From Actinomycetota bacterium (GTDB taxonomy: Bacteria > Actinomycetota > Thermoleophilia > BMS3ABIN01), in assembly GCA_016235065.1 (NCBI GenBank), contig JACRMB010000010.1:6281-70280 (forward strand): 64,000 nucleotides of DNA, given 5' to 3'. A program made the translations under genes and the position numbers. Positions 9,164 to 15,849 of the stretch are shown in pieces (the stretch's first letter is position 1; the number at the start of each line of letters is the position of its first letter). The notes under the pieces were generated by a model that worked only from the letters and a program-made list of their open reading frames with translations, was not told the origin of the DNA and did no database searches.

Positions 9164-10138
9164 CTACTTCGCCAGCACTCCCAGCAGCTGCCACAGATCC
9201 AGGTCGAGCTGCTTGGTCTTCGCCGCGACTTCCTCCAGCGGGGTCAGGGCGATGCCGCCGTCGATCCAGCCTGCCAGCCGGCCGCTGCCGCCTCCAGCCA
9301 GGAACTCGACTGCCGCCGCTCCCAGCCGGCTCGCCAGTATCCGGTCGAAACTGGATGGCGCTCCACCGCGCTGTACGTGCCCAAGGATCGTGACCCTAAG
9401 TTCATAGCCGATCTCGTCCTCACGCGACCGGAAATATTCCATGCATCGCTGGGCGTTGTTACGGGCGCCGTCGGTGACGACAGCCAGCGCGTAGCGCTTG
9501 CCACGGGCGTGGGCCGCCGCCAGCTGCTGCTCCACCTCGGCGGGCTCGATATCGAACTCGGGCGTAACGATGACGTCGGCGCCCCCGGCCAGCCCCGCCG
9601 CCAGCGCCAGGTAGCCGCAGCTCTTCCCCATGACCTCGATGAGAAAAGCCCGGTGGTGCGACTCGGCGGTAGTGCGGATGCGGTCGATCGACTGGATTAT
9701 TATGTCGAGCGCCGTGTCGACGCCGATGGTGATGTCCGAGCCGTGGAGATCGTTGTCGACAGTGGAGGCGACCCCGGCCACAGCCAGTCCCATCCTGCCA
9801 AGCTCATGGGCGCCCGCCTGGGAGCCGTTGCCGCCGATGACGATCAGGCCATCGATGTTCTCGCGCCGCAGGTTCTCCACCGCCCGGCCCCTGGCAGCCT
9901 CGCTCTCGCGGAACTCCCGGCTGCGGGCCGTCCCCAGGAAGGTGCCGCCCAGGTGCAATATCTCGCTGACGTCACGGTTCCCCAGGGGGATGACGTCGCC
10001 TTCGATCAGGCCCTCGAAGCCGTTGCGGACCCCGAACATCTCCATGCCGATGTCGGTGCCCACCCGCACGATAGCCCGGACCGCCGCGTTCATCCCCGGC
10101 GCGTCGCCGCCACTGGTGACGACTGCTATGCGTTTCAT
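9164..10138 (-). CDS. pfkA: ATP-dependent 6-phosphofructokinase
   Basis: TSGGDAPGMN, GGNGS (Gly at the ATP-type position), TVDND, EVMG and LGHVQRGG. Confidence 0.92.
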   Translation of the reverse strand: MKRIAVVTSGGDAPGMNAAVRAIVRVGTDIGMEMFGVRNGFEGLIEGDVIPLGNRDVSEILHLGGTFLGTARSREFRESEAARGRAVENLRRENIDGLIVIGGNGSQAGAHELGRMGLAVAGVASTVDNDLHGSDITIGVDTALDIIIQSIDRIRTTAESHHRAFLIEVMGKSCGYLALAAGLAGGADVIVTPEFDIEPAEVEQQLAAAHARGKRYALAVVTDGARNNAQRCMEYFRSREDEIGYELRVTILGHVQRGGAPSSFDRILASRLGAAAVEFLAGGGSGRLAGWIDGGIALTPLEEVAAKTKQLDLDLWQLLGVLAK

Positions 10139-13692: not shown

Positions 13693-14739
13693 TTACGCGA
13701 AGAACGTCTGCGCCAGGTCCCAGAACTCCTGCCTAACGACCTTGCGCTCGCCCACCGCGACCTCGAGCGGTACGGCCACTATCGCGTCGCCCTGCAGCGC
13801 AGCCATAAGGCCGAACTCCTCAGCCTGCACCATTTCGGCGGCCTTTGCCCCGTAGCGGGTCGCCAGGATGCGGTCGTGAGCAGTCGGAGTGCCGCCGCGC
13901 TGGATATGCCCCAGAACGGTCGCCCGGGTCTCGAAACCGGTTCGGCGCTCGATCTCCTTGGCCAGCAGGTTGGCGACGCCTCCCAGCTTGACGTTGCCGA
14001 ACGCGTCGACCTCGTCGGACTGGGTGACCATCTGCTCCTCGCCTTCCTTGGTGACCAGCTTCGCGCCTTCGCTGACAGCGACGATGCTGAAGTTCTTGCT
14101 GCCCGACTGGCGGCGGCGGATGATATCGCAGGCCTCCTCGACGGAGACATCATATTCAGGGATTAGGATGACATCGGCGCCGCCGGCGATACCGGCCATG
14201 ATCGTTATCCAGCCGGTGTGCCGGCCCATGATCTCCACGACGATGACGCGGTCGTGGGATTCCGCGGTCGTGTGCAGCCGGTCGATGTTCTCGGTCGCGA
14301 TCTGCACGGCGGTGTCGAAGCCGAAAGTGTAGTCGGTCCCGGAAAGGTCGTTGTCGATCGTCTTGGGCACGCCCACCATGTTGAGCGCGTATTTGCCATG
14401 GAGCTGGTTGGCCACGCCCAGGGTGTCGTCGCCGCCGATGGCGATGGTCGCCCAGATCTCATTCTGCCGCAGGTTGTCGACCAGCAGCTCGACGCCGCCT
14501 TCGGTCTTCATGGGATTGGTACGGGAGGTCCCCAGGATGGTGCCGCCGCGATGCAGGATACCTGAGATAGTATTTATGTCAAGAGTCATGTAATCGTTCT
14601 CGAGCAGGCCCCGCCAGCCGCCGTGGACGCCGACCATCTCGTAGCCGGCCCGGGTGAGCTTGAGGGTGGCCGCGCGGATGACCGCGTTGAGTCCAGGGCA
14701 GTCGCCGCCGCCGGTAAGGATCGCAACCTTCTTCGCCAT
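13693..14739 (-). CDS. Phosphofructokinase, group III, probably PPi-dependent
   Basis: TGGGDCPGLN, GGDDT and PKTIDND (Asp/Lys signature associated with PPi use). Start moved to ATG 14739. Confidence 0.88.
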   Translation of the reverse strand: MAKKVAILTGGGDCPGLNAVIRAATLKLTRAGYEMVGVHGGWRGLLENDYMTLDINTISGILHRGGTILGTSRTNPMKTEGGVELLVDNLRQNEIWATIAIGGDDTLGVANQLHGKYALNMVGVPKTIDNDLSGTDYTFGFDTAVQIATENIDRLHTTAESHDRVIVVEIMGRHTGWITIMAGIAGGADVILIPEYDVSVEEACDIIRRRQSGSKNFSIVAVSEGAKLVTKEGEEQMVTQSDEVDAFGNVKLGGVANLLAKEIERRTGFETRATVLGHIQRGGTPTAHDRILATRYGAKAAEMVQAEEFGLMAALQGDAIVAVPLEVAVGERKVVRQEFWDLAQTFFA

Positions 14740-14964: not shown

Positions 14965-15153
14965 CTAGCAGAGGGTTAGTTGCTCCGTGGTCATGTCGTT
15001 ACGCGCGGCGATCACTGCCCTGTCGAAAGTCTTCAGACAGTTGCTGCAGATAAAACCATTCCGTTTTTCTGACCAGGAAACGGTGGCCTTTTTATGGCAG
15101 CAATGACATGGGAAGCTGGCCGAGCTGTGTGTTTTTTCAAGTGAGTCGGTCAT
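14965..15153 (-). CDS. Small putative zinc-ribbon protein
   Basis: CHCC...CSNC pairs about 20 aa apart. TATAAT lies just upstream of the start. Confidence 0.5.
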   Translation of the reverse strand: MTDSLEKTHSSASFPCHCCHKKATVSWSEKRNGFICSNCLKTFDRAVIAARNDMTTEQLTLC

Positions 15154-15366
15154 GGCGATCATTATACATATTCCCCGGCGAGCCAGGCTTACCTGCGGAA
15201 TGGGGGCGGGTATCGAGACCCGGTCCTGCTAAAAACCCGCTACACCAGCGTAATCCGGTAGCCCGCAAATCTCATTGCACAAAAATCCGAGCATAATAGT
15301 CAGGTTTTATAAGCAAACCTGATAGCATCTGCCACACTCTCGCATAACCCGCATGGCTTCCATCTA

Positions 15367-15394
15367 TTGAAATGTATGCATATGTGCGTACAAT
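15367..15394 (+). promoter_or_regulatory. Sigma70-type promoter
   Basis: TTGAAA-N16-TACAAT upstream of the structured RNA candidate. Confidence 0.6.
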
Positions 15395-15400
15395 GGTTGT

Positions 15401-15633
15401 ATTAGCCTCACTGAAGGGTAAAGCTCACCTTCCTTGAGGACGATTCATTTTATGAAGCAGCAAACAGCCGAGAGCTGTTTCTGCTTCGTGATTTGCTCGC
15501 GCGGGTAAGAGAGACCAGCGCAGAACGACAGCCATGTGCCGTAAAATGTCTTCGTCTGTGAATCCCGCCCTCCACAGGTGGACGTGCGAGCAAGTATTTC
15601 AAGAGCCGCCCGCAAGGGCGGCTCTTTTCTTTT
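15401..15633 (+). ncRNA. Unassigned structured RNA candidate (about 230 nt)
   Basis: Bounded by a promoter and a terminator. It has consecutive stems 15406-15439, 15450-15491 and 15491-15595, no downstream gene on this strand and no long ORF. Confidence 0.6.
15601..15633 (+). terminator. Intrinsic terminator
   Basis: AAGAGCCGCCC-GCAA-GGGCGGCTCTT followed by TTCTTTTT. Confidence 0.85.
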
Positions 15634-15849
15634 TGGACTGCAGATAACGCCATATTCAATTCCATCAAAAGCTAGGCAAAGCCGTAGCTGTGTTGATTAC
15701 AAACAATACGCGAGACAGGCTGATTGACAAACACCTTTCTGCCCGCCGCCACGGATCCGTCAATACTGGAAAAAAAAGAACCGCCTCCTGGGCAGTTCTT
15801 TTAAGACACATCAATATTTAGATCAGGGGCAGCCGAGGGCTGCCAGGTC

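Follow-up and report, generated by a model that had tools for sequence, protein, structure and literature searches.

Closest described systems

The CsrB/RsmY sponges and the bacterial Y RNAs are multi-copy or tRNA-shaped RNAs that bind one protein, and in type III toxin-antitoxin systems the antitoxin is itself an RNA. 6S RNA is a hairpin or rod with a central bubble. One paper reportedly treats the differing promoters of GlmY and GlmZ. These two RNAs share only a central stem-loop, which is bound by RapZ, and one of them alone pairs with mRNA, according to the accessible text of PMC4152352. The abstract of PMC9130861 describes 6S RNA as missing from Actinobacteria, and the accessible text of that paper gives Ms1 as syntenic with an HAD hydrolase gene.

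Here we compare these systems with an RNA locus of an Actinomycetota bacterium (class Thermoleophilia; GCA_016235065.1), located in a window, that is, the whole analysed stretch, of 64,000 nucleotides. Like 6S (RF00013) and Ms1 (RF02566), the element appears to stand alone, as a structured RNA some 230 nt long that has a promoter and a terminator of its own. Like GlmY and GlmZ, it has siblings with only a central structured module in common, one of which is predicted to pair with mRNA. It resembles the CsrB/RsmY sponges and Y RNAs in being multi-copy or tRNA-shaped, and one of its classes (class E) recalls the type III RNA antitoxins in combining a structured RNA and a nuclease gene in a portable cassette.

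The predicted transcription unit and its neighbors

The unit is flanked by pfk and a 65-aa ORF, both directed away from it, and by rpmF-yceD, directed towards it. Its parts are as follows.

15367..15394, + strand: sigmaA-type promoter TTGAAA-N16-TACAAT, 10/12 consensus
15401..15634, + strand: predicted class A RNA of about 234 nt, with its start placed from the -10 box and its end from the U tract
15406..15439, + strand: 5' hairpin H1 (P1 of the first-pass annotation), from the minimum free energy (MFE) fold, class A-specific
15450..15491, + strand: 5' hairpin H2 (P2 of the first-pass annotation), from the MFE fold, class A-specific
15492..15594, + strand: four-way-junction core, common to all classes, from covariation
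15492-15503/15583-15594, + strand: closing helix C1, 11/11 pairs changing on both sides (42 sequences)
15504..15516, + strand: hairpin C2, GGUA-N-GAGAGACC, 3 bp and a 7-nt loop, invariant columns
15518..15561, + strand: variable arm C3, 7/8 basal pairs changing on both sides
15531-15547, loop 15536-15545, + strand: apical part of C3, predicted from complementarity to be the seed for an Rrf2 leader
15565..15581, + strand: hairpin C4, CCGYY-(YYCCRCA)-RRYGG, 5 bp and a 7-nt loop, 100% of cells paired, 2/5 pairs compensatory
15601..15634, + strand: intrinsic terminator (stem 15601-15626 and U tract), with compensatory changes across homologues
15452..15508, + strand: 18-codon ORF, judged incidental, not conserved

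The first-pass annotation had proposed a stand-alone, trans-acting structured RNA with this promoter, P1, P2, a closing stem and a terminator. The promoter is present as described (two promoter sites occur in the region vs 0.6 in shuffles), and all four structural elements recur in the MFE fold of the whole unit (z = -5.43; 0/200 shuffles as good). The core folded alone gives z = -3.57. The two 5' hairpins are found in most of 18 class A copies in single-sequence folds, and H1 varies in sequence among these copies while keeping its shape. Together with the homologues and the covariation described below, the conserved promoter and terminator support the proposal as a whole.

The 18-codon ORF noted earlier does exist, and GAGG stands 12 nt upstream of its ATG, as would suit an mRNA for an 18-residue peptide, either a type I toxin or a dual-function RNA. 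The ORF is not conserved among class A copies, and the type I toxin idea fails because 13/21 class A sequences lack an ATG in the 75 nt ahead of the core, the rest having one at offsets from -16 to -61; moreover, the region is absent from classes B, C, and E. We regard a peptide-coding role as hardly credible.

Some neighbors deserve mention in their own right. The 65-aa ORF (14965-15162, - strand), divergent from the RNA, encodes a conserved, Cys-rich, zinc-ribbon-like protein of no known family. It is present in 12/17 class A loci and also in G012 and G016, two genomes without the RNA; it gave only sub-threshold matches to Cas12f zinc fingers, as RpmF also does, and no relative in viral contigs. 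Two phosphofructokinase genes (9164-10138 and 13693-14739, - strand) flank DHH-CBS-nucleotidyltransferase and M50 peptidase genes.

A covarying four-way junction

The core is a four-way junction formed by C1 (11 bp), C2, the long variable arm C3, and C4. In 37 distinct sequences, 90.2% of cells are paired and 19/27 pairs show double-sided changes; slid registers pair 35-45%, and the covariation score was reached by 0/500 shuffles, a count that is not a probability since the structure was derived from the same, related sequences. The first-pass annotation had called for such a covariation check on homologues, and its outcome is positive. The counts for C1, C3, and C4 in the list above come from 42 more diverse sequences, and the exchange of G-C, A-U, and C-G at one C1 position between classes is hard to get by chance.

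The most invariant bases of the core sit in loops and junctions. Hairpin C2 is invariant, its columns showing no variation, so its pairing carries no covariation signal; and because the pattern scans demanded the C2 motif, the copies found in that way are no test of its invariance. Pairing between the C2 and C4 loops is possible in 93.7% of cells, with 0 double changes. By column the core is 86% identical, while the 5' hairpins change sequence and keep shape.

This fold corrects three details of the earlier description. The domain read there as stem-bubble-stem is, by covariation, a four-way junction. The TCCAC/GTGGA hairpin was placed in the wrong register: CCGCC/GGTGG with a 7-nt loop pairs in 100% of cells with compensatory changes, the TCCAC/GTGGA register itself being judged from single variants in the alignment. 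The alternative GCGGG/CCCGC pairing is disrupted in class B, as seen on inspection of the alignment by eye.

Comparison with known RNA families

Several Rfam scans gave no family at the element; the best match (23.1 bits vs a gathering score of 50) lay mostly on the terminator end. The statement that the RNA belongs to no known family thus holds by the gathering scores at this locus. Our search of published work, which covered titles and abstract openings, found no description of this RNA family, and a term search of the main text of PMC11109978 found no Thermoleophilia names.

The housekeeping RNAs are accounted for elsewhere. Canonical 6S lies on contig C8 (231355-231512, 80.3 bits), the only RF00013 match in the genome, and SRP RNA, RNase P RNA, and tmRNA all score above their cut-offs at other sites, while the Ms1 model RF02566 gave 0 matches at E <= 1 in the genome. 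From these results we conclude that the element is an additional RNA. The 6S match is also an observation of its own, as an Rfam 6S RNA in an actinobacterial genome despite the abstract of PMC9130861. The earlier suggestion of a loose likeness to 6S or Ms1 is not borne out, given the canonical 6S, the null Ms1 result, and the four-way junction in place of the 6S hairpin. Furthermore, the siblings described below are predicted to be shorter than known 6S RNAs, and the element is accompanied by pfk, the 65-aa ORF, rpmF, and yceD rather than by the HAD hydrolase gene given for Ms1 in the accessible text of PMC9130861.

Proteins typical of other small-RNA systems were sought in a sample of genomes. 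Hfq was found in 0/5 genomes tested and CsrA in 0/3 family genomes (1/5 among all tested), and the core holds a single GGA, inside stem C4, which sets the element apart from the CsrB/RsmY sponges. It also differs from the Y RNAs, TROVE/Ro60 being found in 0/5 genomes and YrlA giving no Rfam match at the element. The element differs from GlmY and GlmZ in lacking any sequence or Rfam match to them, in its setting without Hfq, in comprising three siblings and a nuclease-linked class, and in its predicted target, an Rrf2 leader paired away from the ribosome-binding site (RBS). By the tests run, it is not a member of the 6S, Ms1, CsrB, Y RNA, or GlmY/GlmZ families.

Homologues, paralogue classes and range

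BLAST detected the element in 16/23 other genomes of the family, and each positive locus also has at least one of pfk, the 65-aa ORF, and rpmF. A search with models of the element (R1-R3) gave 38 matches of 61.8-93.9 bits in 18/24 family genomes, the next-best match scoring 21.6 bits. These copies split into three classes (17 A, 9 B, and 12 C), which occur together in six genomes, including the source genome. In a tree of the core, each class is set apart by a branch; support is firm for class E alone and moderate for class B.

The classes differ in setting and in their ends. Class A converges with the rpmF side and has divergent upstream genes; class C likewise faces a convergent gene, here a 1-phosphofructokinase-like gene; and class B sits just upstream of uvrC. 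The class A and C siblings both neighbor PFK-type genes. The B and C RNAs begin at C1, that is, without the 5' hairpins of class A, and promoter-terminator spacing predicts a length of about 130-150 nt for these paralogues. C-rich, anti-Shine-Dalgarno-like tails, which resemble the 3' end of the genome's own 16S rRNA, precede the terminator in 15/17 B and 17/17 C copies. In G012 (99% complete), the pfk-ORF-rpmF locus is intact and the RNA absent; in G023, the contig terminates within a class A-type terminator.

In wider searches, a sequence pattern found 36 stretches in 185,579 species genomes, 30 in metagenomes, and zero in viral contigs; one metagenome match (10.7 bits) is a chance match. 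Pattern matches are labelled as Thermoleophilia, Actinomycetes, Gaiellales, or Solirubrobacterales metagenome-assembled genomes. The pattern requires the invariant motifs, so more diverged relatives would escape it. Model searches, in which 24-26 candidates per genome were scored, gave 0 matches (model R1) and 1 weak match (model R2) in 127 non-family genomes of the class, and three weak matches only (<=24.7 bits) in 147 non-family genomes sampled from the phylum. These three were taken as chance: one is in a coding frame, one has no C2, and one, in L227, has no C4. In L227 (1501-1606; 23.6 bits, no Rfam match), which comes from a genome of a different family, a C2-like motif with one extra base lies before a PAS-like gene. 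What looked like a fourth paralogue on contig C4 was discarded as the antisense of the Rrf2 leader, with neither C1 closure nor C4, and plasmids gave only terminator-level DNA matches. Judged from sequence, this is a genuine, uncatalogued structured RNA family. Its range is narrow, one bacterial family and scattered cassettes, which limits the weight of the finding.

The same data bear on whether the element acts in cis, as a 3'-end stabilizer, ribozyme, or riboswitch, rather than in trans. Classes B and E do follow a gene on the same strand, and many junction bases are invariant. However, each of classes A, B, and C comes with a promoter and a terminator of its own, classes A and C lie between divergent upstream and convergent downstream genes, and no riboswitch or ribozyme model matches, so we hold a cis-acting role to be highly improbable.

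The position of class B raises another alternative, a circuit of the GlmY/GlmZ type in which the core would bind the RNase adaptor RapZ, one sibling would pair with mRNA, and the others would titrate RapZ. In the source genome, class B is followed by uvrC, ogt, rapZ, yvcK, and whiA, and RapZ is indeed encoded (NF003828, 351 bits vs a cut-off of 244), three genes downstream of class B. On the other hand, uvrC-rapZ-yvcK-whiA is a common gene order. The proximity suggests GlmY/GlmZ-like logic by analogy but could simply reflect a usual arrangement of genes, and the class B RNA is cut off from the uvrC-rapZ genes by a terminator. With no Rfam match at the element, no glmS link seen, and seed-like tails on B and C that pure decoys would not need, we think such a circuit very unlikely. 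Upstream of class B (L074:3615-4277, - strand) lies a gene for a conserved protein that has homing-endonuclease-associated repeats (PF18780) and carries a lysine/alanine-rich tail.

Promoter types and sigma factors

Promoters were compared over 60 distinct copies (21 A, 17 B, 17 C, and 5 E). The sigmaA-type promoter TTG..TAnnAT occurs in 21/21 A, 1/17 B, and 0/17 C copies; a sigmaH-like motif, AGG-N17-19-(C/A)GAA(A/T), in 17/17 B copies and in no other class; and a TAAAG..GCCGATAA-type (WhiG/sigma28) motif in 16/17 C and 2/5 E copies. These patterns were written after the sequences had been seen, and their value lies in the absence of cross-class matches. The class B motif resembles what we take to be the Firmicute sigmaH consensus, and a sigmaH-like gene is present in 19/24 family genomes (235 bits, under the curated cut-off of 294.8). 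WhiG/FliA scores above cut-off in 23/24 family genomes, and the class C motif fits the WhiG consensus given in the accessible text of PMC8325347. The three classes are thus predicted from their sequences to be transcribed by three different sigma factors. On contig C4 of the source genome (L289:469-1740), yacP adjoins the sigmaH-like gene, a Firmicute-style yacP-sigH pair.

One paralogue per sigma type is also what would be expected of sigma-specific RNA polymerase decoys of a 6S/Ms1-like kind, each mimicking in C3 the -10 element of its own sigma factor and feeding back on that holoenzyme. Consistent with this, TAAAAT, TAGAAT, or TACAAT is found in the class A loop, the variation falling on the free -10 position, and the class C arms hold GYYGAWAC, near the WhiG -10 GCCGATAA (PMC8325347, accessible text). 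The class C motif, however, is half of a covarying stem, class B has no mimic of its own promoter, and two class A copies have lost a base, which breaks the hexamer. Canonical 6S is already present in the genome, the fold is a four-way junction and not a hairpin with a central bubble, and RNAs of <150 nt were excluded as 6S/Ms1 candidates according to the accessible text of PMC9130861. We consider polymerase decoys distinctly unlikely.

An Rrf2 leader as candidate target

The stretch on contig C4 that looked like a fourth copy is, read in reverse complement, the leader of an Rrf2-family gene (TIGR00738, 124.6 bits). With the class A RNA as query, this leader ranked first among 2275 crudely called leaders (93.5 vs 67.5 for the next), six shuffled queries reaching best scores of 61.5-74.5; it was also the best non-self match genome-wide (70 vs 47-52 for three shuffles), and third of 2275 when the loop alone was the query. 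What the pairings share is the apical part of C3, which is matched by the 5'-most ~20 nt of the predicted leader despite differences in leader length (75 and 135 nt). An 18/19 match to the complement of the class A C4 was seen on contig C4 (L076, 588771-588789), in the 3' region of a secreted-protein gene before its terminator; its score of 49 is inside the shuffle range of 47-52.

Across the family, complementarity was tested in 22 Rrf2 leaders with 300 shuffles each, and it beat 300/300 shuffles in 7/17 class A genomes, four of genus g1 and three of g9. Borderline values were obtained in G007 (3/300), G022 (11/300), and G003 (2/300), the last being 90% complete and a genome in which class A was not found, while three genomes without any copy of the RNA showed no complementarity in the Rrf2 leader. 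Clear complementarity was missing in 10/17 class A genomes (G007 and G022 included), in most of which the loop is conserved, indicating that the loop there has another target or another job. An exact seed-complement pattern hit the RNA gene 11 times, Rrf2 leaders 5 times, and controls 0 times in 24 genomes, where no second conserved target of the class A seed was found by this exact pattern. The class B and C cores had no outlying target among the 2275 leaders, and their tails as queries gave only a graded target list.

Co-folding in seven genomes, chosen beforehand as complementarity-positive, gave a net binding after unfolding costs of -9.4 to -22.5 kcal/mol vs shuffle means of -0.5 to -4.6, with some shuffled leaders binding more strongly in G001 (minimum -12.3 vs -9.4). 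Accessibility of the RBS shifted by <=0.05 in 6/7 genomes and from 0.27 to 0.51 in G004; so small a change suggests that stability rather than initiation would be controlled. The genome encodes RNase III. The direction of the effect could also be the reverse, with the Rrf2 leader silencing the RNA. The Rrf2 promoter region (L084:3086-3151) carries an inverted repeat, GGGG-N4-5-CCCC, which occurs family-wide, also in genomes without the RNA, and is probably an operator or promoter element.

Class E and PIN-nuclease cassettes

Class E comprises five copies (45-60 bits) in three non-family genomes and two metagenome contigs. All five lie 50-90 nt behind homologues of one protein of ~630 aa with a PIN domain and a C-terminal coiled coil, the two metagenome proteins being partial and matched by eye. 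The three genomes carry the cassette at sites unrelated to one another, and two of them have a distinct small gene ahead of the PIN gene. One homologue passes the Pfam PIN cut-offs, and one source names the protein a VapC-family toxin. The protein is rare (25 clusters of 1-4 members), and the ESM Atlas gave no clusters other than unnamed or VapC-named ones. A full-length match was found in none of 401 genomes of the class, the protein in none of the 24 family genomes that hold classes A-C, the source genome included, and relatives in neither viral contigs nor plasmids. Foldseek with a predicted model (pLDDT 59.6) gave no match at E <= 0.001; a weak row at E 0.27, the VapBC26 structure, is not counted as evidence.

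The cassettes (L214:6156-8647, L215:4379-6687, L216:5246-7588) consist of a small, probably membrane-bound protein and the 630-aa PIN/coiled-coil protein. In L214 the cassette comes, by eye, after methylase-like and ATPase-like genes typical of defence islands, and in L216 the upstream part and the PIN part form one long open frame. Unlike type III RNA antitoxins, the class E RNA contains no repeats, and one copy, under a promoter of its own, lies downstream of the gene; the protein that accompanies it is large, with a PIN domain and a coiled coil, and most copies of the RNA family have no such partner. Complementarity of the class E RNAs to their own cassettes was not above shuffles in 4/5; the exception, in L216, scores 44 vs 33.4 +/- 3.6 and lies on the coding strand of the PIN gene.

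These cassettes are an argument for a different role, in which the core itself would work as a tRNA- or rRNA-like decoy for a nuclease or translation factor. Class E would then be an RNA antitoxin against the PIN nuclease next to it, or its regulator; the siblings on the chromosome would be domesticated copies transcribed with three sigma factors; and the Rrf2 leader would serve as a sponge, particular to its lineage, by which the RNA is unfolded. The linkage of all five class E copies to the PIN gene, at unrelated insertion sites where the context is visible, fits this idea, as does the concentration of invariance in loops and junctions. C2 differs from the genome's own sarcin-ricin loop by the lack of one G and C4 is sized like an anticodon arm, and VapC nucleases cleave the sarcin-ricin loop or anticodon loops, according to the accessible text of PMC5737657. 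But the sarcin-ricin likeness is weak and post hoc: 289/20000 shuffles match that loop equally well, 218/400 match somewhere in the rRNA slice (23S and part of 16S), and the variable C2 base is A in 34/54 sequences where the rRNA has C. This PIN protein was found in neither the source genome nor the 23 family genomes searched, and the distribution of ordinary PIN genes does not follow that of the RNA (G021 carries the RNA without a PIN hit, G012 and G008 have PIN hits without the RNA). ARAGORN calls no tRNA, and the fold search was null at its threshold with a low-confidence model. On balance, we find a decoy function possible but rather unlikely. A second copy of the 23S sarcin-ricin region was seen on contig C8 (411634, - strand), 1.4 kb after the first and diverging ~13 nt past the motif; it reflects either a duplication or an assembly effect.

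A proposed family of sibling small RNAs

We tentatively prefer, with somewhat less than even confidence, a reading from sequence comparison in which the classes are sibling small RNAs with a shared, probably protein-bound scaffold and exchangeable seeds, and in which the target of class A would be the Rrf2 leader in two or more genera. A genome holds as many as three sibling genes with the four-way-junction core in common, each predicted to be under a different sigma factor, and the conserved promoters and terminators suggest that the RNAs are made. The invariant loops C2 and C4 would form a compact scaffold bound by a protein; since Hfq and CsrA are missing, we propose another one, RapZ being one candidate. 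Pairing would begin at the loop 15536-15545 and zip up to a duplex of ~30-45 bp in the 5'-most ~55 nt of the leader. Because access to the RBS is predicted to change little, we propose that the duplex may be cut by RNase III, or may shield the 5' end of the Rrf2 mRNA, in either case altering mRNA stability. On other mRNAs, the seeds of classes B and C may be their single-stranded, anti-Shine-Dalgarno-like tails. Two further observations go against the sibling-RNA reading: formation of the complete duplex would open up the invariant scaffold, a consequence for which the model has no explanation, and the class E RNAs have neither complementarity to their own cassettes nor an anti-Shine-Dalgarno tail.

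A broader version of this reading, which we hold to be unlikely, would be a programmable scaffold of a new kind. The invariant, tRNA-shaped core would load a protein, which would be a PIN nuclease for the mobile cassettes and a host factor for the chromosomal copies, the exchangeable loop would pick the target RNA, and one bacterial family would have domesticated three copies for its housekeeping, sigmaH, and WhiG programmes.

To our knowledge, small-RNA regulation without Hfq is an open question in Actinomycetota. The family described here offers a conserved scaffold with class-specific seeds, one candidate target, three sigma inputs, and a candidate nuclease partner, and the same core is found in two settings, as a set of three on the chromosome and alongside the nuclease gene of a portable PIN cassette. 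Should the PIN link prove functional, it would show, as is seldom possible, a defence- or toxin-type RNA that has become a host regulator, or the reverse; and if the core guides a nuclease via its exchangeable loop, it would be a new RNA-guided system.
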